Of a stretch of DNA of 64,000 nt, positions 19,469-37,551 are shown piece by piece. Position 1 is the stretch's first letter. The number at the start of each line of letters is the position of its first letter. The position numbers and the translations under genes are program-made. Origin of the DNA: Candidatus Rokuibacteriota bacterium (GTDB lineage Bacteria > Methylomirabilota > Methylomirabilia > Rokubacteriales > CSP1-6); NCBI GenBank assembly GCA_016209385.1, contig JACQWB010000265.1:13977-77976 (forward strand), written 5' to 3'. The notes beneath the pieces were generated by a model. It searched no databases, was not told where the DNA came from, and saw nothing but the letters and a program-made list of their open reading frames with translations.

Positions 19469-20911
19469 ATGGCCGATATCACCGCGATCGGGACCCTCGC
19501 CACGCCGGCTCAGCTGGCCGAGCTGGCCAGGCGGCTCCTGGCGAGGGACCGCGTGCCGCTCCAGGCGCTCCAGGATCGGCAGAGCCTGCTCAACAAGCGC
19601 TCATCGGTCCTGGGGACGCTCCGGGGCAAGCTCTCCCTGCTCAAGGGCGCCCTGGATCAGTTTCTCCAGCCGGGGACCCTCTCCCCCTTCGCGGCCAAGA
19701 GCGCTACCTCGAGCGACACGGCGCTCCTGGGCGCGGCCGCGTCCACGAGCGCGAGCGCGGGAAGCCACACCGTCGTCGTGAACCAGCTCGCGAAGCGAAG
19801 CACGTTCGCGTCGGCGGTCTACACGGACAGCGGCACCGCGATCTCCGGGGCGGGCACCGGGACGTTCAACTTCACGCTGACGATCAACGGCACTGCGTAC
19901 ACGGCCTCGGTCACCGTCAATGCGGGGGACACGGATCGGACGGTTCTCAGTAACGTGGCAACGGCCATCACCAACGCCGTATCCGGGAAAGCCACGGCCG
20001 TCGTGGTGGCTACCGAGAGCGGGAAGTCGCGGCTGTCGCTGGCCAGCACAGAGACGGGGACCGCCAACAATATCGCCTTCACCGACACCGACGGCCTCCT
20101 GGGCCGGCTCGGCCTGACCAACGCGACCGCGGCCACCGACACGGACGGGGGGTACATCTACAAAGACCTCGGCAACCACGAGCTGGACGCCAAGGTCACG
20201 CTCAACGGCCTCACCTACTACCGGGAGTCCAACACGATCTCGGACCTGATCGCGGGGCTCACCTTCACCCTGAAGGCGGCCGATGCCTCGAAAACCGTGA
20301 CGGTCAACGTGGAGCCCGATGCCGACGGCATCCTCGCGAAGATCAAGGACTTCATCACGAAGTACAACGACGTCCTCGACTTCCTCGCCGCGAACAGCGC
20401 GGTGGACACCAAAGCGGGCACGCGCGGGGTTCTGTCGCTGGACCCGGTGGTGTCGGGATTCCGGAGCCAGCTCCGATCGCTGGCGGCGACCGTGGTCGGC
20501 TCGGCGGCGAGCGGCGACCCGAACAGCCTGCCTGCCCTGGGCATTCTGGCCGGCGCCGACGGCAAGCTCTCGATCTCCAACGAGACGACCCTCAAGGACA
20601 CGATCAAGTCCGACCCCACGGCGGTCTCGACGGTCTTCGCGGCGACCTCTGACGGTGTGGCCACCAAGATCGAGGACTTCATCGACGACTACACGGGCGC
20701 CGGCGGCCGCATCAGCGCCACCCAGACCCAGCTCTCGACCCGGATCAGGGGGCTCGACACTCAGATCGCGCGGATGAAGGCAGCGCTGGAGAAAAAACAG
20801 CTCGCGCTCCAGCAGCAGCTCGCCCGTGACCAGTCGGTGCTCGTCGCCCTGAACCGGCAGCTCGCCCAGGTCCAGAAGTTCTTCACCACGCTGTCGGGGA
20901 CGACGACATAG
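19469..20911 (+). CDS. fliD: Flagellar filament cap protein FliD (HAP2)
   Basis: N-terminal helices with SLLNKRSSVLGTLRGKLSLLKGALDQF. C-terminal TQTQLSTRIRGLDTQIARMKAALEKKQLALQQQLARDQSVLVALNRQLAQVQ coiled coil. Confidence 0.85.
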   Translation: MADITAIGTLATPAQLAELARRLLARDRVPLQALQDRQSLLNKRSSVLGTLRGKLSLLKGALDQFLQPGTLSPFAAKSATSSDTALLGAAASTSASAGSHTVVVNQLAKRSTFASAVYTDSGTAISGAGTGTFNFTLTINGTAYTASVTVNAGDTDRTVLSNVATAITNAVSGKATAVVVATESGKSRLSLASTETGTANNIAFTDTDGLLGRLGLTNATAATDTDGGYIYKDLGNHELDAKVTLNGLTYYRESNTISDLIAGLTFTLKAADASKTVTVNVEPDADGILAKIKDFITKYNDVLDFLAANSAVDTKAGTRGVLSLDPVVSGFRSQLRSLAATVVGSAASGDPNSLPALGILAGADGKLSISNETTLKDTIKSDPTAVSTVFAATSDGVATKIEDFIDDYTGAGGRISATQTQLSTRIRGLDTQIARMKAALEKKQLALQQQLARDQSVLVALNRQLAQVQKFFTTLSGTTT

Positions 20912-21206: not shown

Positions 21207-21546
21207 CGACCCGCTCGCCCTGGCCAACGCCCTGCAGGCGCTCACCGAAGCGCTGGTGCAGAGCCTGGAGGACGACGCGGGGGATCCCGCGTCCATCGTC
21301 GAGCGTCGGGCGGCTTTGCTGGGCGCTGCTTTCGAAGGACAACCCCTCGACGGGGACCGACGCGCTCAACTCCAGGCTGTTCGGGCCGCGGTTGAAGCGC
21401 TGGAACGATCCGCGCGTAGCACCCTCAGCCAGCGCATCGCCCAGACCAAGGCGGCCCTGATCGCCGTGGAGGCCGGCTGGACAGCGACCCGTACCTATCT
21501 CGAAGAGCGCGCGCTGCCGCCGCTCCTCCTGGATCGGCAAGAGTGA
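21199..21546 (+). CDS. Small all-helical hypothetical protein. It sits where a FliT/FlgN-like chaperone would be expected.
   Basis: 115 aa, helical and acidic. It overlaps the flaG stop by 8 nt and its stop overlaps the downstream GTG. Confidence 0.4.
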   Translation: MADDPLALANALQALTEALVQSLEDDAGDPASIVERRAALLGAAFEGQPLDGDRRAQLQAVRAAVEALERSARSTLSQRIAQTKAALIAVEAGWTATRTYLEERALPPLLLDRQE

Positions 21547-23525
21547 GGCTGGCCACGGCCATGAGCGACGAGGCGCGGACCGACCGCCAATCGGGAGGCC
21601 CGGTCGAGCGACTGGCTCGCCTGGCCCAATCCATCGGCGAGAGTCGCGCGACGACGTCCGCCCTCAGGGCCGTCGCCCGTGCCGCGGCTGACCTTTTCGG
21701 CTTCTCCCGCGTGTGGATCTGGCGAGTCGACCATCGCCACGGTCGCCTGTTGACCCTCGCCGCCATGGACGGCGGCGAGCGGACAGAAGAAATCCTGCTC
21801 CAGTCCGGGCTGCTCAGGACCGTGTGTGAGGACCGCGTGCCGCGCCTTCGGGTGGACGTGAGCGAGGAAAAGCTCGGGGCAAAGCTCGATCTTCCCGGGA
21901 CGGCTGGGATGGCGGGTGCCCTGCTCCCTCTCCTCTCCGGTGGGGAGCTGGAGGGTCTCCTCCTGGGAGTCTGGGAGGGCGGAGGGCCCGGCTGCCTGTC
22001 AAGCCTCCCTGCGCTCCTCACCCTGGCTGCCGAGGCTGGGCTCCTGGTTCGGCTGGACCGGCTCGTCCGGGAGCAGGAGCAGCTCGGGGCACAATACGCC
22101 GCGCTGGCGGACCAGCTCCACGCCGGGGTCGCCGTCATCACGCGGCAACACGACTTCCTCTACACCAACGCTCGCTTCTGGCAGCTCCTTGGCCTCCCCC
22201 CCGAACACGTACAACGGCTCAGCGTGGAGGAGTTGATCCCGGACCCGACCGGACAAGCTCAGGTCCGGGAGTTCCTCCATCAGGCGTGGGCCCAGCCGCG
22301 CGAGAGCACGTTAAGAGGGCTCAGCCTTCGACGGGCGACCGGGCCCGCGGCGACGGTCACCCTCAGCGCTCAGCGGCTCCCGCTCGGAGCCAGCGTGGCC
22401 CTCCAGCTCGTCGTGGCTCAGGCTGCTGATCAACCGCGCGAGGAGCTGGCGGCCGGCGACCCCCTCCGGGCCTTCGGGCTCTACCTGGCCGGCCTGGCCA
22501 ACGATCTCAAGGGGCCCCTGACCGCTTACCTGGGACACTTGAAGCTCCTGGGAGACCGTAAGGACCTGCCGACCGATCTCCGGGAAGCCTTCCATCTCTA
22601 CCGCGAGGTCACGGCCGAGGTTCTCGCGCGAATCTCCCGCACCATGGAATGGGGGAGACGGTTCCCGGTCAAGGAGCCGGTGGACCTTCGGGCCGTGGTG
22701 CAGGACGCCGTGGCCACCATCGAGGGGGGCGATCTCCCCGACACAGTCCAGCTCATCGTGGAGGCCGAGCCCGTCTGGCCGGTCAACGGCATGGCCGACC
22801 AGCTCCAGGTGGCGATCGAGGCGCTGCTCCGGAACGCGTGCGAGGCGCTTGTGGACCGGGGCGGGACGATTCGGGTGAGCTGCACGATGCGGGGCGACAC
22901 GGTGTCGGTCGCGGTCTCGGACTCGGGCGAGGGAATTCCCGAATCGATCCTCCCCTATATCTTCGACCCGTTCTCGTCAACCAAGGGCGCCGGCGAGGGG
23001 CGCGGGCTGGGTCTGGCCATTGTGAAGGAGATTGCCGCCCGCCACGGCGGGAGGGTCGAGGCCCGTTCCGAGCCCGGCCGGGGGACCACGGTCAGCCTCG
23101 CGTTCCCGCGACTGGCCCAGGCAAAAGCCGACGCCGGAAGCCCGGCGAACCGGCAGACCGTCTTGCTCGTGGATGACGATGCGGGGATCCGGGAGAGCTA
23201 CCGGCTCATGCTGGAGGCGGCTCGGTATCGTGTGGCGACGGCCATGGACGCCGACGACGCGCTCCGACAGATCGCCGTGGAGGCACCGGATATCCTCCTC
23301 ATCGACGTCCAGATGCCAGGCCGGGACGGCGTGGCTCTCGTCGAGGCGCTGAGGAAGTGGCATCCGGAATACCTGGGGCGAACCGTGCTCCACACGGCCT
23401 ATGCCCACGAGGCCAGGGTGCGGGACACGGCACGGCGGTGCGGGGTCATGCTGCTCGAGAAGCCCTGCGATCCGGAGATTCTGTTCAAGACGCTCGCCCG
23501 CCTCGGGCGTCGTGACCACGCCTGA
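21543..23525 (+). CDS. Hybrid sensor histidine kinase, with domains GAF, PAS, HisKA, HATPase_c and a C-terminal receiver
   Basis: GAF-like LRAVARAAADLFGFSRVWIWRV. Phosphorylated-His box LANDLKGPLTAYLGHLKLL. ATPase G-boxes DSGEGIPESILPYIFDPFSSTKGAGEGRGLGLAIV. Receiver LLVDDDAGIRESY...DILLIDVQMPGRDG. Start GTG at 21543 or ATG at 21561. Confidence 0.8.
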   Translation: MRLATAMSDEARTDRQSGGPVERLARLAQSIGESRATTSALRAVARAAADLFGFSRVWIWRVDHRHGRLLTLAAMDGGERTEEILLQSGLLRTVCEDRVPRLRVDVSEEKLGAKLDLPGTAGMAGALLPLLSGGELEGLLLGVWEGGGPGCLSSLPALLTLAAEAGLLVRLDRLVREQEQLGAQYAALADQLHAGVAVITRQHDFLYTNARFWQLLGLPPEHVQRLSVEELIPDPTGQAQVREFLHQAWAQPRESTLRGLSLRRATGPAATVTLSAQRLPLGASVALQLVVAQAADQPREELAAGDPLRAFGLYLAGLANDLKGPLTAYLGHLKLLGDRKDLPTDLREAFHLYREVTAEVLARISRTMEWGRRFPVKEPVDLRAVVQDAVATIEGGDLPDTVQLIVEAEPVWPVNGMADQLQVAIEALLRNACEALVDRGGTIRVSCTMRGDTVSVAVSDSGEGIPESILPYIFDPFSSTKGAGEGRGLGLAIVKEIAARHGGRVEARSEPGRGTTVSLAFPRLAQAKADAGSPANRQTVLLVDDDAGIRESYRLMLEAARYRVATAMDADDALRQIAVEAPDILLIDVQMPGRDGVALVEALRKWHPEYLGRTVLHTAYAHEARVRDTARRCGVMLLEKPCDPEILFKTLARLGRRDHA

Positions 23526-23555
23526 CGCGCGGCCGACGAGCCGCCCCATGGATCC

Positions 23556-25418
23556 GTGCGACCTGTGAGCCGCTCCCTGATCCGGCGGCTCCTGTTTGGC
23601 CCGCTCTACGTCGCCACCAACAACCACCCTGACGCGTACGGCGCTCACAGCGCCCTGCTGACAGCGCTCCGGTCCCTCGATACGCTGACATTCGGCGGGC
23701 CGGGCGCGGACATCCCGTACGGTCCGAGCCGGGAGCCGCTCGAGGCGCTGTTCGCCCGTCTGCCTGCGGGGTGGACGCCGGACGCGCTCCTCTGGTGGGC
23801 GCTCGAGTACACTGTGGTCCCGCCGGACCTCTGTCGCGCTCCGATGCCGTCCATCGCGCTCCTCAACGACTGGAACTTCAACCTCTGGGGGACGGCCGGC
23901 GTCCTCGGCATGTTCGATCTCGTGCTCACGGATCGTCCGGGTGCCCGGATCCTGCCGGGCCTCGGCTACGACCACATCGAGGCGTGGCGCGCCCACAGCT
24001 TCGACCCGACCTTCCACCGGCGCCTCGCCGGGATCCCCCGCGACATCGACATCCTGTTCGTCGGGAATCTCAACGGCGAGATCTATCGAGAGCGCTGCCG
24101 CTACGTCGCCCGCCTGGCCAGCCTGGCCGATCAGTATCGGGTCGCGATCGCCGGCGGCGTCCACGGCGAGCCCTACGTCCGCCTGCTCAACCGGGCCCGC
24201 ATCGTGCTCAACCACGGCTACCGGCACGAGCTGAACATGCGGGCCTACGAAGCCGCGGCCTGCGGCGCGCTGCTCCTCCAGGAACGCGGCAACGAGCTGG
24301 AGGAGATTTTCTCGGACGGCGTGCACGCGGTCTTCTACGGGGAGGACGACTTGGAGGAACTGCTCGATTACTACCTCGAGCACGAGGCCGCGCGGGCGGC
24401 CGTGGCGGAGCGCGGCTGCGCCCGCATCCAGGGCGAGACCGCCGCCGACCACCTCGCGACCCTCCTCGACCGGGTCGCGCGTCTGCGGGGTCGCCCGAGG
24501 GCGGCGCGTCAGTTCGGGACCCTCCCCGCCGAGGAGCGCGCCTGGCGGATCGGCCTCAAGGCGTTTCACAGCGCGGACCCTCACGGCGAGGTGCTCGCAA
24601 CCCGGATGCTGGCGACGATCCGGGGGCGGGAGGCGCTGAGTCGCGTGAGCGGGACACTCGCGAGCATCTTCGGAATGGGGGCGGCCAGCAACCCGGCCCG
24701 GAGCGACCTGGCGAGCGCGGCCCGCCAGTGGGCAGCCCGCGCCCTGGCCCTGGACCCCGAGGATCCGATCCACCGCACGCGCGTGGCCGAGCTGGCGCTC
24801 GCCGACGGGGACCGCGCCGCGGCGATCGAGCATTTCCGCGCGGCGACGCACCTCCCCCTGCGCGCGATCTCGCTCCCCTACCCGTATCCGACGGACCGCT
24901 TCCGCGTCGAATGGGACCATGCGGTAGCCGACGCCCCCCGCGAGTTTCGCGCAACGCTTCAGCGCCTGGTCCGGGCCCGGGCCCTCCACCGCCTCGCCGA
25001 CGTCCTCACGGGCGACGGGAAGACGGTCGAGGCGATCGCCCGGCTCGAGCTTTCGAGCGCGCTCGCCCCCCACCTCTGCGGGAACACGCTGGCGCTGGCC
25101 CGTCTCCACGCCCGCACCGGGGATCTGGAGGCCGCCACCGAGCGGTACGCGGAGTACCTGAGCGAGTGCCCGCTCGACCTCATGGCCCGGCAGGAACTTG
25201 GCGACGCGCTGGTCTCGCTGAATGCCCCTCAGGCTGAGGCGTTCCTTGAGGAAACGCTCCGGCTGCTGAGGGCGATGGAGTCGTTCGAGCCGAGTGGCGT
25301 CGGCCATGCCGTGGGGCAGGCCCGTCACGAGGCGAGGCCCGAATTAATCTTGGAGGGAGAAAGCGACCTCGCGGCCATTCCGGTCAGCGAGGCCGGTTTG
25401 CTGGCCGCCACGCCCTAG
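23556..25418 (+). CDS. CgeB-like (DUF3880/GT-B) domain protein with C-terminal TPR repeats, a candidate protein glycosyltransferase
   Basis: Aa ~70-330 are collinear with the CgeB-like blocks of the ORFs at 112 and 8881 (PAGWTPDALLWW..., RARIVLNHGYRHELNMRAYEAAACGALLLQERG...LEELLDYYLEHEAARAAVAERG). The C-terminal 250 aa are TPR-like. GTG start. Confidence 0.7.
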   Translation: MRPVSRSLIRRLLFGPLYVATNNHPDAYGAHSALLTALRSLDTLTFGGPGADIPYGPSREPLEALFARLPAGWTPDALLWWALEYTVVPPDLCRAPMPSIALLNDWNFNLWGTAGVLGMFDLVLTDRPGARILPGLGYDHIEAWRAHSFDPTFHRRLAGIPRDIDILFVGNLNGEIYRERCRYVARLASLADQYRVAIAGGVHGEPYVRLLNRARIVLNHGYRHELNMRAYEAAACGALLLQERGNELEEIFSDGVHAVFYGEDDLEELLDYYLEHEAARAAVAERGCARIQGETAADHLATLLDRVARLRGRPRAARQFGTLPAEERAWRIGLKAFHSADPHGEVLATRMLATIRGREALSRVSGTLASIFGMGAASNPARSDLASAARQWAARALALDPEDPIHRTRVAELALADGDRAAAIEHFRAATHLPLRAISLPYPYPTDRFRVEWDHAVADAPREFRATLQRLVRARALHRLADVLTGDGKTVEAIARLELSSALAPHLCGNTLALARLHARTGDLEAATERYAEYLSECPLDLMARQELGDALVSLNAPQAEAFLEETLRLLRAMESFEPSGVGHAVGQARHEARPELILEGESDLAAIPVSEAGLLAATP

Positions 25419-25438
25419 CCGGGCCGCGGCGAGGCGGG

Positions 25439-25999
25439 TTAGCCGAGAATCGTCTCTACCGTCAGGCTGACGTCGCGGAAGGCTTCCAGGGAGATCGTTT
25501 CGCCGCGCGGGATCCGCCGGAAGTTTCGGTAGCCATCCGGCGTCGGGTCTCTATACTCTTCGACAGTTTCGGTTGAAAGGTCAACGAGCCACGCGTTGGG
25601 AATCCCCGCGCGAGCATACAGGGGAATCTTCACGGTTCGGTCAAACTCCACTGAGGTGTCCGCCACTTCGACCACAAGCCACACGTCCTCCGGTCCCGGG
25701 TGCGCCTGGGCATAGAAGTCAGGCCGGGGTCGAAGCAGGGCGAGGTCGGGCTGGGGTTCAGAGTGGAGACCAAGACCCAGAGGGCTTTGGACGGACACCG
25801 TGATCCGTTGACCGAGAAGCGAGTTGAACAGGTGACCCAGACGCCGTACGCACGCGGCATGGCGGGCGCCGATAGGGGTCATCTCAATTATCTCCCCTTC
25901 GATGAGCTCCACGCGATCATCTTCGGAGAAGACACCCGCCTGGCCCATCCGATGGTACTCCTCGACACTGAACCGGCGCCTGAGAAGCTGAACGTCCAT
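25439..25999 (-). CDS. Uma2-family (DUF820) putative restriction-endonuclease-like protein
   Basis: MDVQLLRRRFSVEEYHRMGQAGVF...RVELIEGEIIEM...PDLAL...VWLVVEV is the Uma2 signature. ATG at 25999 carries a purine-rich RBS; an alternative ATG lies at 26023. The track ORF is extended to 26095. Confidence 0.7.
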   Translation of the reverse strand: MDVQLLRRRFSVEEYHRMGQAGVFSEDDRVELIEGEIIEMTPIGARHAACVRRLGHLFNSLLGQRITVSVQSPLGLGLHSEPQPDLALLRPRPDFYAQAHPGPEDVWLVVEVADTSVEFDRTVKIPLYARAGIPNAWLVDLSTETVEEYRDPTPDGYRNFRRIPRGETISLEAFRDVSLTVETILG

Positions 26000-26091
26000 C
26001 GCCTTTTTCCTTGCTCCGACCATATGACGGAAAGAGAGGGTCGTCAAGTGTATCGGATCTGCTGCGCTCCAAGTTCTGTGGCTGACAGCAA

Positions 26092-26592
26092 TCATCCACC
26101 TTGTGGGCGGGCTAGGCGCTGGCGGACCAGCGCGGGGAGGTAGCCCGGGTCGGCAGCCGCGTCGGCTTTCGACACGAACTCGACGCCGGCGTGCCGGAGC
26201 TCCGGAGCCGGCGGCGCGTCACCCGTCACCACCATCACCGGCACGTCCCGGAGTCCCGACTCCTTGGCCATGGCTCCGATCAGATCCATTCCCGACCGGA
26301 GCGATCCCCCTTCCGGAACGCGGAGCCAGAGGTCCACGATCACGAGGGCGGGCCGGAGACGTCGGATCCCCTCGAGCCCGTCGTCGGCGGTGTCGCTCGA
26401 GGCGGTGCGGAAGCCCCCGCGCTGGAGAAAGAGCTGGAAGCAGCGGGCCAGCTCGGGATCGTCATCGATCACCAAGACCAACGGCGCGCCGTCCGGACCC
26501 TGTGGATCCCAGGGTCCCTGAGTCAGTTGCGACCCCTCACCATCGCGGTCCCTCACCCGTCGCGTGTCGCCCGGTCGTGAACCCGTCCTCAA
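26092..26592 (-). CDS. Single-domain response-regulator receiver (CheY-like), paralog of 28417..28872
   Basis: PLVLVIDDDPELARCFQLFLQRGGFRTASS...PALVIVDLWLR...VPVMVVTGD is the receiver fold, with an acidic pocket DDD and a phospho-acceptor D in IVDL. Confidence 0.65.
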   Translation of the reverse strand: MRTGSRPGDTRRVRDRDGEGSQLTQGPWDPQGPDGAPLVLVIDDDPELARCFQLFLQRGGFRTASSDTADDGLEGIRRLRPALVIVDLWLRVPEGGSLRSGMDLIGAMAKESGLRDVPVMVVTGDAPPAPELRHAGVEFVSKADAAADPGYLPALVRQRLARPQGG

Positions 26593-26648
26593 GTCTTGCC
26601 GATACCCGGCTCGCCCCGGCGCCCGAGTTCGGCCCTTCCATGGTCATT

Positions 26649-26677
26649 ATGCCCCGGCGAAGGGCATGAGATACAAT
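26649..26677 (+). promoter_or_regulatory. Candidate promoter/operator for the MNT-HEPN pair: palindrome ATGCCC-N7-GGGCAT, then a TACAAT -10-like hexamer
   Basis: atgccccggcgaagggcat at 26649..26667, and tacaat at 26672..26677, 14 nt before the ATG at 26691. Confidence 0.3.
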
Positions 26678-26690
26678 GCGGGGCAGCGCA

Positions 26691-27185
26691 ATGAGCCTTC
26701 TGCAAAGGTACGAGGATCTGCTGGAGCAGCTCTTGGTGGAAGTCACGGCCACCTACGGGCCCAGGCTGGTCGCGTGCGCCGTGTTCGGCTCCGTGGGGCG
26801 CGGCACGCCACGCGGCGACTCGGACATTGACCTCCTCCTCGTGGTGCGGGGCCTGCCGCGGGGCCGGCTCAAACGCGTGGAGGAGTTCCTGGTGGTCGAG
26901 AGCCGCCTCGATCCGGCGCTGAAGCCCGCGGAGCCCGGAGGCGCCCCGATTGGGCTCTCGCCCGTCTTCAAAACCCCCGAGGAGGTGGAAGCCGGCAGCC
27001 CACTGTTTCTCGACATGGTCGAGGACGCGAGGATCCTGTACGACCCCGAGGGCTTCTTGGCCGCGCATCTGGACCTGCTCCGTATCCGGCTTCGCGAGCT
27101 TGGCGCCCGACGGGTCCGCTCGGGGAACGCCTGGTACTGGGACCTCAAGCCGGACCTCAAGCCCGGCGAGGTGTTTACGCTGTGA
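26691..27185 (+). CDS. MNT-type minimal nucleotidyltransferase (antitoxin-like partner of HEPN)
   Basis: FGSVGRGTPRGDSDIDLLLVV is the GS-x9-DxD polymerase-beta nucleotidyltransferase motif. Start at the second in-frame ATG (26691; track 26676). Confidence 0.7.
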   Translation: MSLLQRYEDLLEQLLVEVTATYGPRLVACAVFGSVGRGTPRGDSDIDLLLVVRGLPRGRLKRVEEFLVVESRLDPALKPAEPGGAPIGLSPVFKTPEEVEAGSPLFLDMVEDARILYDPEGFLAAHLDLLRIRLRELGARRVRSGNAWYWDLKPDLKPGEVFTL

Positions 27186-27592
27186 CGAACCAGAGCCTCG
27201 CCCGGAGCTACCTGGTCAAAGCCCAGAAGCGACTCAAAGCCCTCGCGGTCCTTCGGGACGAGGGGGCGTACTCGGACGTCATCCGCGAGGCCCAGGAGCT
27301 GGTTGAGCTGGCCCTGAAGGGAATGCTTCGGGCGGCGGGCATCGAGCCGCCGAAGTTTCACGACGTCGGAGGACTGCTCCTCGAGCACGCGCGGAAGTTC
27401 TCCCAGGCGGCGCGTGAGCAGCTGCCCCGAACGCGCGTATCAGGATGCGGCGTGGGTGGTCACCCTCGCCAGCGAGGTGATCGAACCGAGGCAAGTCGGG
27501 ACTTGACAGCTCTGTTCCTGTCCCCTCCTGCCTACCGCGAGGGCCAGGTGGCCAGCCAGCGAACCCTAGGAAACCTTGGATGCACCGCCTGA
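27182..27592 (+). CDS. HEPN-domain protein (toxin-like partner of MNT). The C-terminal third may be frameshifted.
   Basis: ATGA overlap with the MNT gene. The helical N-terminal 85 aa (ARSYLVKAQKRLKALAVLRDEGAYSDVIREAQELVELALKGMLRAAGIEPPKFHDVGGLLLEH) are HEPN-like. The tail after REQLP is Gly/Arg-rich and overlaps the convergent PIN gene by 61 nt. Confidence 0.55.
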   Translation: MTNQSLARSYLVKAQKRLKALAVLRDEGAYSDVIREAQELVELALKGMLRAAGIEPPKFHDVGGLLLEHARKFSQAAREQLPRTRVSGCGVGGHPRQRGDRTEASRDLTALFLSPPAYREGQVASQRTLGNLGCTA

Positions 27593-27975
27593 TAGAACGG
27601 TTCATCCGCAGTAACCAAGTCCGCGTCCGTCGCAACGCTGAGGGCAAGGAAGAGCGCATCGTAGATGCTCTGCTGGTGCTCCAGGCCCAGGCGGTACGCC
27701 ATGGCAAGAAGGGGTAGACTCGGGACGATTTCGAACGGGATGGAGGCGAATGCCGAGAGAACGGCGGCTCCGTCCTCTGGATCAAGCCCCTCAAACATCA
27801 CGCGCTTCCAGACCACATTGGCGAACTCCGGATAGACGAGGTCTGGCCCCAGGGGGTGGTAGATGCCTGTCTGGAAGAGTTGACGGAGCCGGAGCGCTTG
27901 GTCCGAATAGGGTTCATCGAAGAACCACTTCACCGCCACGCTCGTGTCAACCGCCACACGTTGGACCGTGCTCAT
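27532..27975 (-). CDS. vapC: PIN-domain toxin VapC
   Basis: VAVDTSVAVKWFFDE carries the first acidic D of the PIN fold, with conserved D/E further on. 4-nt overlap with the upstream antitoxin. Confidence 0.75.
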   Translation of the reverse strand: MSTVQRVAVDTSVAVKWFFDEPYSDQALRLRQLFQTGIYHPLGPDLVYPEFANVVWKRVMFEGLDPEDGAAVLSAFASIPFEIVPSLPLLAMAYRLGLEHQQSIYDALFLALSVATDADLVTADEPFYQAVHPRFPRVRWLATWPSR

Positions 27976-28214
27976 CGCTGTCGGTCTTCCCGGAGGAGGG
28001 GAGCGCTGTCCTTAAACGTGCCGTACCCGGCTCGCAGTCGTTCCCTGAGGGTATCGACCATTTCCCACGCTGCCTGTGGGCCTTCGGGCCTTCCGAGAAC
28101 CTGTTCGAGGATCACCGCCGCTTCCTGGGTCACCGAGCGCCGGTTTCGCCTAGCACGCTTCTTTAGCCTTTGGTAGATCACTGCCGGAAGTGTCCGAATA
28201 TAAAGGGTCGCCAT
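27972..28214 (-). CDS. vapB: RHH (FitA/VapB-like) antitoxin
   Basis: MATLYIRTLPAVIYQRLKKRARRNRRSVTQEAAVILEQ matches the FitA-type plasmid-stability antitoxin N-terminus. GGAGGGG SD. Confidence 0.7.
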   Translation of the reverse strand: MATLYIRTLPAVIYQRLKKRARRNRRSVTQEAAVILEQVLGRPEGPQAAWEMVDTLRERLRAGYGTFKDSAPLLREDRQR

Positions 28215-28300
28215 GGAACCCCTCCAGAAATGTTCTCAAGTTCCATCATTTTGTGATCATTTTACCACATAATGCTAACACATTATATATTTGGGGCAAC
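28215..28300 (-). promoter_or_regulatory. AT-rich promoter/operator region of vapBC (the only AT-rich stretch in the window)
   Basis: ccatcattttgtgatcattttaccacataatgctaacacattatatatttgg. Direct repeats ATCATTTT x2 around a TGATCA palindrome. TAAAAT/TATAAT-like hexamers on the minus strand. Confidence 0.45.
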
Positions 28301-28416
28301 AGAGGACGAGCCCTGTGGGAAGCCGTGGGCGCGGGACGGGAGCTGGGCGACCTCCTGGTAGAGCGGGGCGCGCCGGAGGCCGAGCCGCTACTCCCGGAGA
28401 CGTTACGCCTGCTCCG

Positions 28417-28872
28417 TCACCCGCCAGCCTCGGCCCGCCGATCAGCCGGCGGCGACGCCAGTCGGCGTCGGACCAGATCGGGGAGGCGTGTTGGGTCGGC
28501 CGCGGCGGCGGCCTTCGCGACGAACTGAACCGCGCGGTCCCCGAACTGGTCGGGCTCCGGGACGTCGCCCGTCATGACGATCACGCGCAGGTCTCGGAGC
28601 GCTGGGTCCTCGCCGAGCGCCCGGATCAGGTCGGCCCCGGACTGGAGCGCCGCTCCCTCCCGGCTGCGGAGCCACAGGTCCACGATCGCGAGCGCCGGCC
28701 TGAGCGTCCGGATCCCGTCGAGGCCATCCGAGGCGGTCTCGGCGGACGCGGTCCGGAAGCCGCCCCGCTGGAGGAAGAGCTGGAAGCAGCGGGCCAGGTC
28801 CGCATCGTCCTCGACTAGGAAGACGAGCGGGGCACTCTCCGGGCCCTGGGCGATCCAGCGCGTCTGACTCAC
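28417..28872 (-). CDS. Single-domain response-regulator receiver (CheY-like), paralog of 26092..26592, translationally coupled to the lasso-cluster nucleotidyltransferase
   Basis: PLVFLVEDDADLARCFQLFLQRGGFRTASAETASDGLDGIRTLRPALAIVDLWLR. GTG start with a GGAGG SD 7 nt upstream, 13 nt after the stop of the upstream gene. The track ORF is extended to 28941. Confidence 0.65.
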   Translation of the reverse strand: MSQTRWIAQGPESAPLVFLVEDDADLARCFQLFLQRGGFRTASAETASDGLDGIRTLRPALAIVDLWLRSREGAALQSGADLIRALGEDPALRDLRVIVMTGDVPEPDQFGDRAVQFVAKAAAAADPTRLPDLVRRRLASPPADRRAEAGG

Positions 28873-28885
28873 GCGGCGACCTCCG

Positions 28886-30076
28886 TCAGCCGGGGTCTCC
28901 GGCCGCGCGGCGCCCGGGCGGGAGCAGCAGCGTCGTGGCACCCTTCGCGGCCTCCCGACCGAAGCCGCACACGCGGCGGGCGTACGCTGCGCCGAGCTGC
29001 CGTCTGCGGGTGAGCCCGTACTGCAGCAGCATGAATTCGGGCGACGGCGCGAGCAGGGCGAGCGCGTAACGGAGCTTCGCGCGGAGCCCCTTGAGGGCGA
29101 ACAGCATGCCCAGGCTCTCCACCCCGTCCACGCGCGACCCCTGGGCCAGCAGGCGAAGCAGCCGGCCCTCGAGCGATCGCGGACGTTCCAGCCTCAACCG
29201 ATCGAGGAGCGGATCCGGCATCGGCGTGGCAAAGAGTGCCCTCACCGTTCCCAGGACGCGCCCGAGAAGAAACTCGAGCCGCGTCTGGTGAGCGAGCGAC
29301 AGAAACCACGACCAGTCAACGAGGGCCGCCTCCCTGCGCAGGAGCTGATCGATCTCATAATACCAGAGCAGCGGGGCGGTCCCGTCCCGATGGGTCAGGT
29401 GAAGACAGAGGTGGAAGAGCAGCTCGTCCGCGGGGAGCACCCGGGTCTGGAGGCCGACAACCTGCCCTCCCAGGCACCGCGCCAAGAGCTGGTCCGTCTC
29501 CAGCCGGTCCACGAATGGCGGGTAGGTCAGCGTCCAGTGGGGCTCGACGATGATCCAGCCGTGACGGTCTTTGAAGAACTTGAGGGTGTAGGAGAAGGCC
29601 CGGGCGAAGCCCGGCCGGCGGTCCATCTCCGCAAATCCCAGGCTTCGGAGAAGCCCGCCCACGTCCGCCAGGTCCGCCTTCCTCACGAGGAGATCGATGT
29701 CCCCCATGGGGCGGGCCGTGATGTCGCCGTAGAGCCGCTCCGCCAGGGCCAGGCCCCGCAGCGGCGCGCACGCCAGCTTGCGCTCGTCGAAGGCCCTGAG
29801 GATGCTCGCCAGCTCGTCAGCCAGGATCAGGTTCCGGGCGGCAGAGCCGGCGGCCTGCGCTTCGAGCCGCTCCGCGAGCCCAGCCGGAAGCTGCCCGCCG
29901 ATCTCGGATCCCCTGAGCCGACGGTGGAGGAGCGGGGTGAATCCGTGCGTGGCTGCGTCGCTGACGATCGCTTCCCAGTCTGCCGGGGTCGGTGCGGGGA
30001 GCGTCGCGGGATCAGCGCCGCGAAGCAGTCCCATCAGGAAGGGGTGGACCATCAAGGCAGCCTCCGAAGCCCTCAT
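28886..30076 (-). CDS. PF14907-type nucleotidyltransferase-family protein, of the kind that often accompanies lasso-peptide clusters
   Basis: GDIDLLVRKADLADVGGLLRSLGF is a nucleotidyltransferase hG[GS]/DxD-like motif. 396 aa. 4-nt overlap with the upstream ABC gene. Confidence 0.65.
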   Translation of the reverse strand: MRASEAALMVHPFLMGLLRGADPATLPAPTPADWEAIVSDAATHGFTPLLHRRLRGSEIGGQLPAGLAERLEAQAAGSAARNLILADELASILRAFDERKLACAPLRGLALAERLYGDITARPMGDIDLLVRKADLADVGGLLRSLGFAEMDRRPGFARAFSYTLKFFKDRHGWIIVEPHWTLTYPPFVDRLETDQLLARCLGGQVVGLQTRVLPADELLFHLCLHLTHRDGTAPLLWYYEIDQLLRREAALVDWSWFLSLAHQTRLEFLLGRVLGTVRALFATPMPDPLLDRLRLERPRSLEGRLLRLLAQGSRVDGVESLGMLFALKGLRAKLRYALALLAPSPEFMLLQYGLTRRRQLGAAYARRVCGFGREAAKGATTLLLPPGRRAAGDPG

Positions 30077-31917
30077 CGCCGAACCTGCCCGGCGCCAGGG
30101 ACGCGCGACCGCTGGGGCCCGCAGTCTTCCCCGTGTTCACGCTCGGCGCCTTGCGCCTGCCACAGGGCGCGAAACCGCCCGCGCTCCCGCGCGATCAGAA
30201 TCCCCCAGGTTCCTGACTCCGCGAGGCGCCCGTCCTCGATCACGTAGATGATGTCGGCCTCCCGTACCGCGGAGAGCCGGTGGCTGATGACCACCAGTGT
30301 CAGCCTGCCGCGAAGGTTCCCCATCGCCTGTCGGATGCGTCGCTCGTTCTCAGAGTCCAGCGCGCTGACCGCTTCGTCCAGGATCAGGAGGCACGGCTTC
30401 CGGAGCAGCGCCCGGGCCAGGGCCAGACGCTGCCGTTCGCCCCCCGAGAGGAGCACGCCCCGATCGCCGACCATCGTGTCCAGTCCCTTCGGCAGTCTCG
30501 CCACGAACTCCTCGGCCGCTGCCAGGCTCAACGCCTCCCGGACCTCATCATCCGTCGCGCCTGGCGCCGCCCAGAGCAGGTTAGCGCGGACCGTGTCGTG
30601 GAAGAGAAAGGTCTCCTGGGTGACATAACCGATGCGGTCCCGCCAGGCTCCCACCCGCTCGGGAGTCAGCGGCACGCCGTCAACCAGCACGCGCCCGTCA
30701 TCGGGCGTGACCAGCCCGATGATCAGGTCGGCGATCGTGCTCTTGCCGCTCCCGGACGGGCCCACGATCGCGGTCGTCCGGCCGGCAGGAATACTCAGCT
30801 CGAGCTCGCGAATGACCGGGAGGCCGTCGTAGGCGAAGGAGACCCGATCCAGCCTGATGGCTGAGTTCAGCTCGACCGACTCGGCTCTGCGGGACCGGGG
30901 TTCCACCGCAGCCTCGCAGCGCCGCTGCATCTCCACGATCGACGCGAACGCCGGCAGCAGATTCACGAAGCTCTGATAGCTCTGCTGCACGCTGGCGAAC
31001 TTGGGCATCAGCCGTCCGAAGAGGAAGAGGAACAGGAGCAGCTCGGCGGCCGACAGGGCGAGCAGCTCGAGGGCCACGTACAGGATCGCGCTCAGGAGGC
31101 CCACCGAGCCGACCTCGAACCAGTACCTGACGTCAGCCTGGTTGCGGACGGCCCGCAGGTACATGTCCCGCACCCGCGCGCTGAGCCGCGCAAACAGCTC
31201 GGCGTGACGCTCCTCGGCCCCATAGCTCTTCGCGATCTTCATGCCGCCGAGATGCTCCGTCACGGCCGCGTACAAGTGGTTCGTCGCCTCGGAGAGCCCC
31301 TCGCCCGCCACGTGGGCCACCCGAGTCCGGCCCCTGAGCCCGACCATCAGCGCGACACCGCTGGCACAGATGACCGCTGTCATCATAAGCGAGAGCCTCA
31401 TCGCGAACCCGACATAGACAAGGACGACCACGGCGCTCGCCACCGAATGCAGCAGGCAGTGCGTCGCCCCGCCGACCCGTTCCACCTCGGCGGTCAGGAC
31501 ATGGGTGAAGTCCGCCGAGCGGCTCCGCGAAAAGAAGGGCCAGCTCGTATTAGCGATCGCCCGATAGAGCCGTGTCCGCAACGACGCCACAAACCCGTGC
31601 TCCACGCCGAGGCTGACGGTCGTCTGCCAGCGGGCCAGGAGCCCGTACAGGTTGACGATCAGCGCATAGGCGCCGAGCACGGCCACCAGGGTCGGGCCCA
31701 CGCCGGCCGCCGCAAAGATCGAGGAGACGAAGCGGGCGATCGCGCTCACGCCGCCCTGCTGAACATCCAGGCCGACGAGCTGGAGCAGCGGCACGAGCAT
31801 GAGGACCCCGATCCCTTCGGTCAGCCCCAGGCCGAGCATCAACCCGAGGGCCAGCGCGACCTTCCATCGCATCACGCCGACCAGGGTTGCCAGGTAGGAG
31901 CGGAAAGACTGGCGCAT
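30073..31917 (-). CDS. Fused TMD-NBD ABC exporter (lasso-peptide D protein, McjD-like)
   Basis: Walker A GPSGSGKST. ABC signature LSGGERQRLALARALL. Walker B LLILDEAVSALD. Six-helix N-terminal TMD. Confidence 0.85.
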   Translation of the reverse strand: MRQSFRSYLATLVGVMRWKVALALGLMLGLGLTEGIGVLMLVPLLQLVGLDVQQGGVSAIARFVSSIFAAAGVGPTLVAVLGAYALIVNLYGLLARWQTTVSLGVEHGFVASLRTRLYRAIANTSWPFFSRSRSADFTHVLTAEVERVGGATHCLLHSVASAVVVLVYVGFAMRLSLMMTAVICASGVALMVGLRGRTRVAHVAGEGLSEATNHLYAAVTEHLGGMKIAKSYGAEERHAELFARLSARVRDMYLRAVRNQADVRYWFEVGSVGLLSAILYVALELLALSAAELLLFLFLFGRLMPKFASVQQSYQSFVNLLPAFASIVEMQRRCEAAVEPRSRRAESVELNSAIRLDRVSFAYDGLPVIRELELSIPAGRTTAIVGPSGSGKSTIADLIIGLVTPDDGRVLVDGVPLTPERVGAWRDRIGYVTQETFLFHDTVRANLLWAAPGATDDEVREALSLAAAEEFVARLPKGLDTMVGDRGVLLSGGERQRLALARALLRKPCLLILDEAVSALDSENERRIRQAMGNLRGRLTLVVISHRLSAVREADIIYVIEDGRLAESGTWGILIARERGRFRALWQAQGAEREHGEDCGPQRSRVPGAGQVRR

Positions 31918-31918
31918 G

Positions 31919-32881
31919 TCAGAAGCGGCGGAGGTCCGACTCGAGCGCCGCGCGGACGGCCGGCAGCCGCGCGAGATCTCGCGGGAAGGCGAGGAGCCTG
32001 ACGGGAATCCGGGCGACGAGCCGCGCCGTCAGGTCGAACTGACGTGCGAGCCGTTCCGGTTCAACAATCACGGCGTTGAAGGTGTTCTTCAGCAGCGCGA
32101 GAAAGGCCTGGCGCGGAGCGAGCGGCCGGATCGTCACCCTTGCGCGTCGCGTATTCTGCGCCGGCGGCGTCAACACGTAGATCGCCTTCAGGGGCGCGGC
32201 GCCCAGCCAGGACATCTTCCACGCGAGCCGGATAACGAGTTTGGGCGTGAGGGGATTCATCGGGGTGCCCACGACCCCATCGCCGAACACGCGTTTGGCA
32301 ACCTCGGGAAAGAGCTTGATCCGTGGCGGGCCAGGCCACGCCCGGAAGCTGTGGCCGTTTTCTTCCACCACCAGGAGGTCGTCGGTCAGCAACGAATGCC
32401 CGGCCTGGAGAAAGGCCGCCCCAAGGCTCGACTTCCCGTAGCCGCAGTCGCCGACGAAGGCCACGGCCTTCCCGTCGACGACCACGACAGTCGCGTGGAG
32501 GGAATCGATGCCCTGCTTCAGGAGGGCGAACGAGAGGACCTGACCCAGCAGGTAGGTCTGAAACGCCTCGACGCTCCCGCCGTCGAGCGACCGGCCGGCG
32601 ATTCTACGCCCATCGGCCGAGATCACGAACTCGAACAGGCCCGACCATCGCAAATAACACGAGCCGTCGTCGAGCGACGCGTACCTGAACCAGGAAACGT
32701 CGTTCCGCTCGCCGCCGATCGTGCGATGGACTCGAGGGAAGAGCGATGCCGGTGCGCGGACCACCTCGGCGTCCACGCGGCCGCACCCGGCTACGCGACG
32801 ACACGGGAGCGGGATCACGCTCCGGACACTTAGCCCGTACGCCTGGTAGGCATACCGGCGTCTGGATCTCGACCGTGGCAC
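31919..32881 (-). CDS. HPr-kinase/phosphorylase-related kinase, a lasso-peptide tailoring kinase candidate
   Basis: P-loop VGDCGYGKSSLGAAFLQAGHSLLTDD matches the HprK C-terminal-domain Walker A. GTG start with an AGGAGG SD 5 nt upstream, immediately after the precursor ORF stop. Confidence 0.7.
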   Translation of the reverse strand: MPRSRSRRRYAYQAYGLSVRSVIPLPCRRVAGCGRVDAEVVRAPASLFPRVHRTIGGERNDVSWFRYASLDDGSCYLRWSGLFEFVISADGRRIAGRSLDGGSVEAFQTYLLGQVLSFALLKQGIDSLHATVVVVDGKAVAFVGDCGYGKSSLGAAFLQAGHSLLTDDLLVVEENGHSFRAWPGPPRIKLFPEVAKRVFGDGVVGTPMNPLTPKLVIRLAWKMSWLGAAPLKAIYVLTPPAQNTRRARVTIRPLAPRQAFLALLKNTFNAVIVEPERLARQFDLTARLVARIPVRLLAFPRDLARLPAVRAALESDLRRF

Positions 32882-32894
32882 CCCGGCCTCCTGA

Positions 32895-33044
32895 TTAACC
32901 TGTACCGGCCCTCGTCTTCGGGCCGGCCACGTTCGCCTCGCTCCTGTTCTTGGCCCCGCCCCTCGTGAGCGTTCGCAAGTCGCCGTAGCAGCGGAGTCGG
33001 GGCGGGGTGTACGGCTTTTTGGCCGGGCGGTTTAGCTTATTCAT
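32895..33044 (-). CDS. Candidate lasso-peptide precursor (A peptide), 49 aa, absent from the six-frame track
   Basis: Translation: MNKLNRPAKKPYTPPRLRCYGDLRTLTRGGAKNRSEANVAGPKTRAGTG*. The leader contains Y-T-P-P-R-L-R-C-Y-G (YxxPxLxxxG) and Thr at -2 (LTR|G). The core starts with Gly and has Glu8 as ring acceptor. GGGGGAG SD 8 nt upstream. It lies in the 164-bp gap between the cyclase and kinase genes. Confidence 0.6.
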   Translation of the reverse strand: MNKLNRPAKKPYTPPRLRCYGDLRTLTRGGAKNRSEANVAGPKTRAGTG

Positions 33045-33045
33045 C

Positions 33046-34923
33046 TCAACATCTCCCCCAGAATTTCTCGAGCCAGCGGTCCACGCTCACCAAGAACCAC
33101 ACCTCCCATCGAAGCTCCCTCTCCCCCCGGAGATAGCGGGTCACCAGCTCGTGCGCTCGCTCCAGGTCCACGTAGCGCCCCATCCGTCCCGAGCGATCCT
33201 CGAGCGGGGCGGGCGGATCACGGCGACAGAGAGCGGTCAGGTTTCGATCCATCGGATCGGTCCAGTCTCCCTTCCCCTGTCTCGACCGGATCGTGTCAGG
33301 CACGATCCCCTGCATCGATCGTCGCAAGATCCATTTTCGCTCGCCATCGCGCGTCCTCCGCTCCCAGGGGATCGAGAGGACGAACTCCACGAGCCGACTG
33401 TCCAGGAACGGATATCTGAGCTCCATGCCCCACCGGGCCACAGCCCGTTCGTCCACCTCGACCTTCAGGACATAGTAGGCCCCGGTCACGGAGACGTGTG
33501 TGTCAGCCTGGACGCAGGACGGGAACGGCAGCCGAACGCGCGGCTCGCGGATGCGCTCCCGCAGCCCGACCTCGCGGGCCAGGTGCGGGCGGATCCAGCT
33601 CGGTGGGGCGCGGCGGGCCGCCCGCTTGCCCCAGTACTTGAGCCGGGACGGGAGAAGGCTGGCGAGCGCCAGCTGGGCAAACTCCCACGGCTGGCCGCCG
33701 TACCAGCGGGCCAGCTCGCCGGTCTCGCGGATGAACCGTCCGGGCTTCAGCGTGCGCAGCAGATCGGCCAGGTAACCGATCTCGTCCAGGAGCTGGTCTC
33801 CACCGTCACCCGACAGGAGTACCCGGCACCCCCAGGCGTCAACCGACTCCAGCGAGGCGAGGCCGCTCTGGCGGTTCGCCGCGACGATCGGGCTCTCGAC
33901 CGACCAGAGGAGATCGTCAAGCCGGTAGAGCGGGTCGTCGTCCGACGCGTGGATCTCGTGCACCTTGACACCCGAGGCCCGGCCCACCGCCCGGACGTAC
34001 CGCCGCTCGTCAGAATCCGGGTGATCTGAAAAGAGCGTGAAGGCGTCCAGCGAGGGGGAGACCGCCCCGCCGTCGGCGAAGACCCGCGCGGCGGTACAGA
34101 CGATCGCCGACGAGTCCAGACCGCCGCTCACGAAGGCGCCGATCGGGAAGTCGCTGCGCGTGCGACACCTCACAGCCTCCGTGAAAAGGGAGCGGAAGTG
34201 CTCGGCGTATTCCTCGTCGCGGGCGTACCGGGTCTCCCGTGGCGGATCGACGGCCCAGTAACGCTCGATCCAAAGGCGTCCCTCCTCGAGCACGAGGAGG
34301 TGGCCGGGCGGGAGCCGATGGATTCCGCGGAAGAAGGTCCGCGCGTGATCCCCCTCCCGGAACTCCCTGAGCAAAAAGGCCAGGATCATCTCGTCGTCAG
34401 GTTCCGGCATCCGGTCAAGAACGGCGAGAATGGGCTTCGTCTCCGAGCTGATCAGCAGGGTGACGCCGTCCCACGTGTAGTGAAGCGGTTTGAGCCCGAG
34501 CCGGTCTCTCGCACAGAGAAGCCTCCCCCTTCGGCCATCCCAGAGCGCGAACGCAAACTCCCCGATGATTCTTCCCAGGGCGCCCGCTCCCCACTGCCTG
34601 TACGCCTCCAGCGTCAGCTCAGGATCGGTCTGACCCGAAAGCGGACGTCGCTCCGCCTTCAGGGCTGCGATCAGTTCCTCCCGGTTGTCGAGCCGGCCAT
34701 CCCAGACCAGCCGGCACGTGCCCTGGGAGTCAACCACTGGCTGCTCCTCGTGGAGAGACTCCGGGGTCGTGTAGAGGAGCCGATGAGCCAGCCCGACTGG
34801 CCCGCTCACCCACCGGCCCTCGCCATCGGGGCCCCGATGGGCCATGGCCCCCGACATCCGCTCCAGGAGACTCGGATCCACGGCCAGTCCGTAAGCGTGA
34901 CAGATCCCCACAAGCCCGCTCAT
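33046..34923 (-). CDS. Asparagine-synthetase-like lasso cyclase (C protein), copy 2
   Basis: Class-II amidotransferase and AsnB synthetase domains (SGGLDSS PP-loop). The N-terminus is MSGLVGICH: the nucleophilic Cys2 of true AsnB (compare MCGIAG at 48164) is replaced by Ser, as expected for lasso cyclases. Confidence 0.8.
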   Translation of the reverse strand: MSGLVGICHAYGLAVDPSLLERMSGAMAHRGPDGEGRWVSGPVGLAHRLLYTTPESLHEEQPVVDSQGTCRLVWDGRLDNREELIAALKAERRPLSGQTDPELTLEAYRQWGAGALGRIIGEFAFALWDGRRGRLLCARDRLGLKPLHYTWDGVTLLISSETKPILAVLDRMPEPDDEMILAFLLREFREGDHARTFFRGIHRLPPGHLLVLEEGRLWIERYWAVDPPRETRYARDEEYAEHFRSLFTEAVRCRTRSDFPIGAFVSGGLDSSAIVCTAARVFADGGAVSPSLDAFTLFSDHPDSDERRYVRAVGRASGVKVHEIHASDDDPLYRLDDLLWSVESPIVAANRQSGLASLESVDAWGCRVLLSGDGGDQLLDEIGYLADLLRTLKPGRFIRETGELARWYGGQPWEFAQLALASLLPSRLKYWGKRAARRAPPSWIRPHLAREVGLRERIREPRVRLPFPSCVQADTHVSVTGAYYVLKVEVDERAVARWGMELRYPFLDSRLVEFVLSIPWERRTRDGERKWILRRSMQGIVPDTIRSRQGKGDWTDPMDRNLTALCRRDPPAPLEDRSGRMGRYVDLERAHELVTRYLRGERELRWEVWFLVSVDRWLEKFWGRC

Positions 34924-36815: not shown

Positions 36816-36824
36816 CTCACTGGC

Positions 36825-37268: not shown

Positions 37269-37551
37269 CTAAGTCGTTCTCCCGCAGTCGCGTGATGAAC
37301 TGGAGCAGATCGTCCGTGCAGCGTGGCTCCGCGACCGCGTACTCCTCCAGGAGCGCGTCACGCACCGCGCGCAGCGAGGCGTGCTCCCGGACGAGTTGCC
37401 AGATCCGCGTACCGGCCGGATCCAGGCCGAAGTAGACGCCGGTCTCGAGATTGAGGATGACGATCTCGCCCCCCAGATCGTGAAAGACGACGTCGTCTCG
37501 GATCCGGACTCGAGATGCGAGCGACAGTTCTCTCGCCAGCGCGGCACTCAT
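37252..37551 (-). CDS. Lasso-peptide B1 protein (PqqD-like RRE leader-recognition domain)
   Basis: MSAALARELSLASRVRIRDDVVFHDLGGEIVILNLETGVYFGLDPAGTRIWQLV is a PqqD-family fold. 99 aa. The start codon overlaps the stop of the upstream WecA-like gene. The track shows this only as the tail of a longer ORF. Confidence 0.7.
   Translation of the reverse strand: MSAALARELSLASRVRIRDDVVFHDLGGEIVILNLETGVYFGLDPAGTRIWQLVREHASLRAVRDALLEEYAVAEPRCTDDLLQFITRLRENDLVEIVE

Follow-up and report, generated by a model that had tools for sequence, protein, structure and literature searches.

In a 64,000-nt stretch of a Candidatus Rokubacteria metagenome-assembled genome contig (89,703 bp in full), hereafter called the window, we examined a short run of toxin-antitoxin (TA) and nuclease-like genes that stands around and between two genes for CheY-like single-domain receivers, designated receiver A (MBI4611271.1) and receiver B (MBI4611275.1). 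We consider it probable that this arrangement arose from an old duplication of the receiver gene at a hypervariable junction where ordinary TA and nuclease genes have been gained, exchanged and eroded piece by piece; the region is a case of ordinary genome plasticity and contains no new mobile or defence element. An earlier reading of the same DNA, made without database searches (the sequence-only reading), had seen here one mobile or defence cassette that was inserted by, or caused, the duplication of the receiver gene. Its gene calls and coordinates were essentially right, with the two receivers, a minimal nucleotidyltransferase (MNT) and HEPN gene pair and a PIN and ribbon-helix-helix (RHH) gene pair (vapBC) between them, and a Uma2 gene outside (Table 1). 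The single-cassette interpretation was not supported: synonymous divergence (dS) was 0.85 between the two receivers and about 0.25 for the MNT/HEPN genes against a related lineage, the pieces have different histories and hallmarks of mobility were not found.

A variable junction behind the flagellar block

The gene map was based on a listing of open reading frames (ORFs) and on Pfam matches. The flagellar block of the window comprises, in order, flagellin, FliD, two small ORFs and a hybrid histidine kinase (HK), the stop codon of which forms the left edge of the variable junction. Relatives of the locus were obtained as short metagenome contigs (1–8 kb) by exact-protein look-ups, except for contig L138 (JGI 3300009444), which came from an exhaustive search. 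Four of the contigs (L001–L004) were 99.8–100% identical to the window. In two others (L005 and L006), the backbone showed 74–80% DNA identity to the window and the order was ABC exporter, NTP_transf_5, one receiver, a spacer of 19 nt and a convergent HK, followed by FliD and FliS. The empty site with a single receiver that the sequence-only reading had suggested seeking in relatives was thereby found, with no TA gene, Uma2 gene or second receiver in it, and the TA genes are accessory as had been supposed. The segment without a counterpart in L005 (window 23527..28416, 4.9 kb) extends beyond the two receivers and also includes the glycosyltransferase-TPR (GT-TPR) and Uma2 genes.

The other lineages each showed a different content. 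In L136, whose HK has 72.7% nucleotide identity to that of the window, HK was followed by a convergent Uma2 gene, a divergent MNT gene with an intact HEPN gene and then an unrelated gene, and neither a receiver nor vapBC was found between or with Uma2 and MNT/HEPN. Unique sequence followed HK in L134, and in L135 a GT-TPR homologue was found beside HK in the opposite orientation (46% identity, E=3e-131 by BLASTP), a gene that is missing at the junction in L005 and L136. L138 carried the 5' end of MNT, a receiver A orthologue (87% nucleotide identity, dS 0.28, with an ATG start) and Uma2. A 218-nt deletion, equivalent to about 26082..26299 of the window, has truncated its receiver A gene (211..567) and joined it in frame to the Uma2 leader; the resulting ORF shares 4 nt with the start of Uma2, which is itself intact. 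Collinearity among the contigs ended exactly at the HK stop codon (window 23526, L005 3509, L134 4575, L135 5297 and L136 1851), downstream of which the sequence was different in each of the five sampled lineages, the window included.

These differences could also have been produced by loss from an ancestral arrangement of the window type, with both receivers, Uma2, GT-TPR and possibly the TA genes, from which L005 and L006 lost about 4.9 kb and L136 lost receiver A, while L138 would be part-way; we regard this as unlikely. Deletions are directly seen at the locus (a loss of 101 nt from the HEPN gene of the window and of 218 nt from the L138 receiver A gene), the GT-TPR homologue by HK in L135 and the Uma2 gene abutting HK in L136 show that these genes recur at the junction, and the near-equal divergence of the receivers described below would fit a duplication that preceded the split. 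On the other hand, the L005 receiver is not chimeric, which excludes a simple deletion by recombination between A and B, the L005 spacer of only 19 nt holds no remnant of lost genes, and the low GC content at third codon positions (GC3) of vapBC and the young age of MNT/HEPN argue for gains.

The two receivers stem from an old duplication

The two receiver genes are in direct orientation, as had been reported, both being on the minus strand and in register at an offset of 2346 nt, and both matched Pfam Response_reg (BLASTP E=4e-57). They share an ungapped repeat of 300 nt at 68% identity. The sequence-only reading had estimated them to be about 80% identical; the actual values were 69.0% for nucleotides and 61% for amino acids, with a dS of 0.85 and an omega of 0.34 over 144 aligned codons, and the higher figure derives from one highly conserved stretch, RCFQLFLQRGGFRTAS. 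One of the two strings given as shared, GGAAGCAGCGGGCCAG, occurred exactly twice, at 26436 and 28782, where none was expected by chance, while the other, CTGGAGGAAGAGCTGGAAGCAGC, was exact in receiver B and had one mismatch in receiver A. When the two genes were aligned with 100 nt of flanking DNA on either side, the flanks could not be aligned and homology spanned only the start codon to the stop codon. The paralogs are much more divergent than had been judged by eye, an outcome that the sequence-only reading had itself named as evidence against it, and their identity, their dS and the restriction of homology to the coding sequence are all at odds with a recent segmental duplication.

Receiver B is the positional orthologue of the lone L005 receiver, being located 13 nt after NTP_transf_5 as the last gene of the ABC/NTP_transf_5 operon. 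The L005 receiver showed 76.9% nucleotide identity, 76% amino acid identity and a dS of 0.82 to receiver B, and 70% amino acid identity and a dS of 0.93 to receiver A, while orthologous genes of the window and L005 had dS values of 0.57–0.92. The three receiver lineages form a near-trichotomy, which dates the duplication to about the time at which the window lineage split from its nearest sampled relative. Two more complex histories were considered and rejected. The L005 receiver is not a chimera of a B-like 5' part and an A-like 3' part, since A-like and B-like sites were interspersed along the alignment; gene conversion between A and B was also rejected, as no region with a markedly lower dS was found (0.70 in the N-terminal half and 0.85 overall).

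Both copies evolved under purifying selection, with omega values of 0.18–0.34 among the receivers and 0.21–0.34 in comparisons involving receiver A. In the alignment of the three full-length members, the phospho-acceptor site residues DD, D (IVDLW), T/S (TGD/SGD) and K (xKA) were invariant. The start of receiver A has nevertheless changed. Its homology to receiver B and to the L005 receiver covers 26092..26526, and the codon at 26524..26526 is CTG where the homologous codon is a GTG or ATG start in receiver B, L005 and L138; a 9-nt insertion relative to L138 lies just upstream of this CTG codon. Candidate starts for receiver A are TTG at 26592, GTG at 26556 and TTG at 26481, the last being the NCBI choice, and receiver A may be poorly translated. 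An exact look-up of the 129-aa receiver A found no recorded gene with such a product.

Like CheY-like single-domain regulators, the receivers have the PF00072 receiver fold with the conserved site residues, and they adjoin flagellar genes and a hybrid histidine kinase, from which they would probably accept phosphoryl groups in the CheY-like manner. They differ from such regulators in that their Response_reg scores (37.3 and 33.3 bits) were barely above the cut-off of 30.2 bits, in a loop of unusual length that follows the phospho-acceptor Asp (DLWLRxPEGGSLxSG) and in their occurrence in few Rokubacteria contigs only. This loop, located at beta3-alpha3, can be followed in receivers A and B as DLWLRxPEGGSLxSGxDLI. 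A word-indexed search of 5.8 billion proteins returned three members of the subfamily, and when 1.84 billion representatives were searched exhaustively with a profile HMM, only two were found at E<=1e-30; the next match, at 100 bits, was to a hybrid kinase and involved its generic receiver domain. A scan of GTDB genomes with the receiver alignment returned 42 loci, all of them generic receivers with at most 44% identity. The subfamily is thus lineage-specific and confined to a few Rokubacteria contigs.

A decaying MNT/HEPN module, probably exchanged recently

MNT and receiver A are divergently oriented, and the MNT stop codon overlaps the HEPN start by 4 nt. It contains the GSx10DxD nucleotidyltransferase motif (FGSVGRGTPRGDSDIDLL) and resembles the minimal nucleotidyltransferase structure PDB 1wot. 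Between the window and L136, MNT showed 89.6% nucleotide identity and a dS of 0.28, and HEPN, taken as its intact allele, a dS of 0.24, compared with dS values of 0.84 for HK and 1.15 for Uma2 in the same pair of genomes. The high-identity segment begins at window position 26645, just upstream of MNT. Such low divergence next to older flanks indicates that Rokubacteria lineages have recently exchanged the MNT/HEPN cassette.

A conserved palindrome, GCCCCGGCGAAGGGC, accompanied by a TACAAT box, was found upstream of MNT (26645..26675 in the window and 2567..2600 in L136), and the segment of high identity common to the window and L136 has its left end here. This region is probably the autoregulated promoter and operator of the MNT/HEPN operon.

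The sequence-only reading had described an MNT/HEPN pair; both genes are indeed there, but the HEPN ORF is a frameshifted remnant, which had been overlooked. The authentic N-terminal half covers 27182..27429 and is followed by a frameshifted tail that extends 61 nt into vapC. Profile positions 2–67 of 117 of the Pfam HEPN family were matched in the window, in contrast to positions 2–114 in the intact 141-aa allele of L003, a JGI contig. Compared with L003, the window lacks 101 nt, which removes profile positions of about 68–117 and shifts the frame, giving rise to the overlap with vapC. The two sequences align in blocks 1..869 and 968..2136 of L003, with a 3-nt overlap in the window and L003 positions 870..967 deleted there, and L003 is otherwise one single-nucleotide difference from the window over 2 kb. 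L001 and L002, from two sequencing runs, carry the same deletion and are 100% identical to the window across its junction. L004 (JGI 3300009691, 923 nt) stops exactly at the junction (window 27429); a sample containing both HEPN alleles, which would interrupt the assembly graph, should give such a contig end. The deletion has the appearance of a polymorphism that inactivates the toxin within a single population. There are only three protein accessions between MBI4611271.1 and MBI4611275.1, a number that fits treatment of HEPN as a pseudogene by NCBI. Having lost the C-terminal half of HEPN, the module in the window is dead and MNT is an orphan.

The module shares with MNT/HEPN systems, including the characterised type VII HepT/MntA system, the order of MNT before HEPN, the 4-nt overlap and the GSx10DxD motif, together with a full-length Pfam HEPN match (PF05168) in the intact allele. 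It differs from HepT/MntA in that the HEPN gene of the window is truncated and frameshifted, the MNT score (22.4 bits) is below the NCBIfam MntA equivalog cut-off of 60 bits, and no R-x(4-6)-H motif occurs anywhere in the intact L003 HEPN allele, in which the conserved segment is RRERELAFYG. A PDB search with the intact HEPN gave no match. Given the missing motif and the MntA score, we describe these genes as a predicted MNT/HEPN module, not as a demonstrated HepT/MntA system.

vapBC and Uma2 may have other origins

The second TA pair has the sequence features of a type II system. As in FitAB-like VapBC operons, the antitoxin gene comes first, its stop codon overlaps the vapC start by 4 nt (27972..27975), and a FitA-like RHH protein is combined with a PIN protein. 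The PIN match covered profile positions 2–116 of 120, and D10, E50, D106 and D124 of VapC lined up with the PIN acidic positions of PAE0151 (PDB 2fe1 alignment). Upstream there is an AT-rich leader with short repeats, in which the sole promoter-scan site (28262..28291) is on the plus strand, opposite to vapBC. Unlike in typical members of the class, no NCBIfam equivalog was matched, and PAE0151, the only solved PIN structure that matched, is a distant one (E=1e-4); VapC is a putative RNase.

As had been reported, Uma2 was located just outside the receivers; it is on the minus strand. It matched PF05685 over the full profile (positions 1–172 of 172) with 116.2 bits against a cut-off of 27, shows PD...EV..D...K-type residues and is similar to the solved Uma2-like structures 9y1l and 6okh. 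Translation probably begins with the ATG at 25999, as the orthologues in L136 and L138 begin at the equivalent Met, and a promoter scan found a promoter-like site of its own at 26047..26019. Uma2/DUF820 is listed only as a predicted PD-(D/E)xK family (PMC3424549). The family has no established function, and a literature search for PDC-S03, PDC-S09, Uma2 and DUF820 found no functional validation; among PHROGs, one family of unknown function was matched by Uma2 and nothing else was found.

Base composition also separated the pieces. The GC content of the window is 68.4%. Backbone genes had a GC3 of 83–92%, the receivers 81% and 88%, and MNT/HEPN 87%, compared with 64% for vapB, 74% for vapC and 71% (70.6%) for Uma2, the atypically low values of vapBC and Uma2 suggesting separate foreign origins.

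A single cassette or a receiver-controlled defence module is improbable

If MNT/HEPN and vapBC, with or without Uma2, had been inserted in or beside a receiver gene as a single mobile or defence cassette, the two receivers would be the footprints of that one event. We consider this very improbable. The receivers do form direct repeats around the TA genes, and a single receiver stands without a cassette in L005 and L006. The mismatch in age between the receivers and MNT/HEPN largely refutes the single insertion, and further points against it are the confinement of the receiver repeat to the coding sequence, the indel relative to L005 that reaches outside the receivers, the unequal GC3 of the pieces and the occurrence of part of the gene set without receivers in L136. 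Signs of mobility were also sought directly. Every long ORF at 21.5–32.9 kb was assigned to a family other than recombinases, integrases and transposases. No bracketing inverted repeats, target duplication or boundary repeats besides the receiver coding sequences were found, nor was a tRNA gene or an Rfam element, and a terminator scan gave nothing relevant. The phage DNA collection showed no similarity, and the only plasmid match was a 193-nt fragment of Uma2, from a Leptolyngbya plasmid.

The suggestion that the gene combination is typical of defence islands also proved weak. The PADLOC HMMs gave no complete match to a recognised defence system and, apart from the receivers, matched unvalidated candidate families only, namely PDC-S03 (Uma2, 7.7e-15) and PDC-S09/PDC-M05A, of which PDC-S09 corresponds to MNT. 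The surrounding genes are flagellar, histidine-kinase, lasso-peptide-like and glycosyltransferase genes, none of them belonging to a defence system. Similar to defence islands and variable hotspots, the junction differs in content in each of the five lineages between conserved flanks and holds TA and nuclease-like genes. It differs from them in being very small (3–5 kb) and in the lack of a recognised defence system, an integrase and a tRNA gene.

The PADLOC HMMs also gave weak matches (E about 1e-5 to 1e-6) between the receivers and SduA, in its N-terminal part, which is receiver-like. These matches, together with the arrangement of receiver A, Uma2 and MNT common to the window and L138, would favour a functional coupling, in which the receivers, chiefly receiver A, which has the orientation of Uma2, lies directly upstream of that gene and diverges from MNT, act as a phosphorylation switch of the nuclease or TA genes in a signalling-regulated defence or stress module. 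Such coupling appears extremely improbable. L136 retains Uma2 and MNT/HEPN with no receiver and L005 retains a receiver without Uma2 or TA genes, and thus no functional tie between the receivers and the TA genes is indicated; moreover, L138 has an intact Uma2 beside a truncated receiver A, Uma2 has its own promoter-like site, and the SduA matches are similarity generic to the receiver fold.

Probable events at the junction

Piecemeal turnover around an old receiver duplication is the explanation we prefer. The junction lies between two conserved blocks, one of flagellar genes ending with the hybrid kinase and the other a lasso-peptide-like cluster ending with the ABC exporter, NTP_transf_5 and a receiver, and small selfish or accessory genes would accumulate and decay there piecemeal. 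The receivers are old paralogs of one duplication, most simply a tandem one, while vapBC, Uma2 and MNT/HEPN would have arrived separately, with MNT/HEPN lately exchanged among Rokubacteria lineages. From their family membership, VapB would bind and neutralise the PIN RNase VapC and autoregulate the operon, and the MNT partner would likewise neutralise its HEPN partner. Receiver A itself appears to be eroding, as its ancestral start codon has been lost in the window, and it is truncated in L138 and absent in L136. The position of receivers on either side of the TA genes would then reflect where new DNA is tolerated, with no mechanistic link between insertion and duplication.

Several points weigh against this explanation. 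The distant NTP_transf_5 orthologues (L129, L130 and L132), whose loci are arranged differently and lack both a receiver and HK in the corresponding position, cannot polarise the indel. No outgroup separates an ancestral state of L005 from a deletion, and GT-TPR, Uma2 and receiver A may have been either gained by the window lineage or lost from L005. The shortness of the contigs leaves the right-hand side of L136 and L138 outside view, and a metagenome-contig scan gave no close relatives among the matches listed, nor did the GTDB scan. As the intact HEPN has no canonical Rx4-6H motif, a past toxic RNase role of the pair is predicted only. The low dS of MNT/HEPN could be due to local constraint instead of transfer, a kind of synonymous constraint that is rare, and low GC3 in genes this short is suggestive only.

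A more specific version would make the 3' end of HK a dedicated recombination hotspot of Rokubacteria, where small TA and nuclease cassettes are swapped between lineages, MNT/HEPN having been exchanged recently and lower-GC donors having supplied vapBC and Uma2. Deletions that inactivate toxins would segregate in natural populations, and receiver A may be a recruited regulator of Uma2 or MNT. We consider this version quite unlikely.

Neighbouring genes

The features of the junction and its flanks are listed in Table 1. To the right of the junction, a lasso-peptide-like biosynthetic cluster extends over 28886..37540 on the minus strand, with receiver B as its last gene. Its core recurs in L129–L132, with an annotated Transglut_core3 gene in L129, L131 and L132, and in distant relatives the core is paired with Wza/Wzz/Wzy export genes. 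The cluster is embedded in a run of polysaccharide genes (37551..46317, minus strand) that includes GT4 (Glycos_transf_4), a DegT aminotransferase, WbqC and several GT1 genes. A very long ORF of 1681 aa (112..5157, plus strand) was found at the start of the window.

Table 1. Features of the junction and the adjacent blocks, in window coordinates
Feature	Position	Strand	Remarks
Flagellin	18219..19049	+	
FliD	19469..20911	+	
Hybrid histidine kinase/receiver (HK)	21543..23525	+	final gene of conserved flagellar block; Pfam-annotated orthologues on L005, L134–L136
Glycosyltransferase-TPR protein (GT-TPR)	23556..25418	+	Pfam Glyco_trans_1_2 E=1.6e-24; GC3 89%, host-like
Uma2 (DUF820), PD-(D/E)xK nuclease-like	25439..25999, ORF to 26095	-	Pfam Uma2 1.5e-33
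Receiver A, CheY-like single-domain	26092..26592	-	Pfam Response_reg 3.3e-09
MNT (minimal nucleotidyltransferase), predicted antitoxin	26691..27185 (alternative start 26676)	+	Pfam NTP_transf_2 2.5e-06
HEPN gene remnant	27182..27592	+	partial Pfam HEPN match
Junction of 101-nt HEPN deletion	27427..27429		3-nt CGG microhomology
VapC, PIN-domain toxin	27532..27975	-	Pfam PIN 9e-11
VapB, FitA-like RHH antitoxin	27972..28214	-	Pfam FitA-like_RHH 2.1e-09
Intergenic, AT-rich vapBC leader with short repeats	28215..28416	-	58% GC; kept in L001–L004
Receiver B	28417..28872 (ORF to 28941)	-	Pfam Response_reg
NTP_transf_5 nucleotidyltransferase	28886..30076	-	Pfam 9.1e-49; first gene of conserved right-hand lasso-peptide-like block
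ABC exporter	30073..31917	-	
HPr-kinase-related protein	31919..32881	-	lasso-like cluster
Two asparagine-synthase-like cyclases	34920..36815 and 33046..34923	-	lasso-like cluster
B2 protease-like ORF, AHAW motif (putative)	36825..37268	-	lasso-like cluster
PqqD/RRE domain	about 37252..37540	-	lasso-like cluster

Significance

Beyond annotation, the significance of the locus is small. It offers a clean natural example of accretion, exchange and decay of TA genes at an operon junction in an uncultured phylum, with one toxin gene caught as a presence/deletion polymorphism between near-identical contigs, and it sets right the view of the region as a mobile defence cassette flanked by receivers. 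The narrow subfamily of CheY-like receivers, located on a lasso-peptide-like cluster by flagellar genes, may be of interest for the study of signalling in Rokubacteria.

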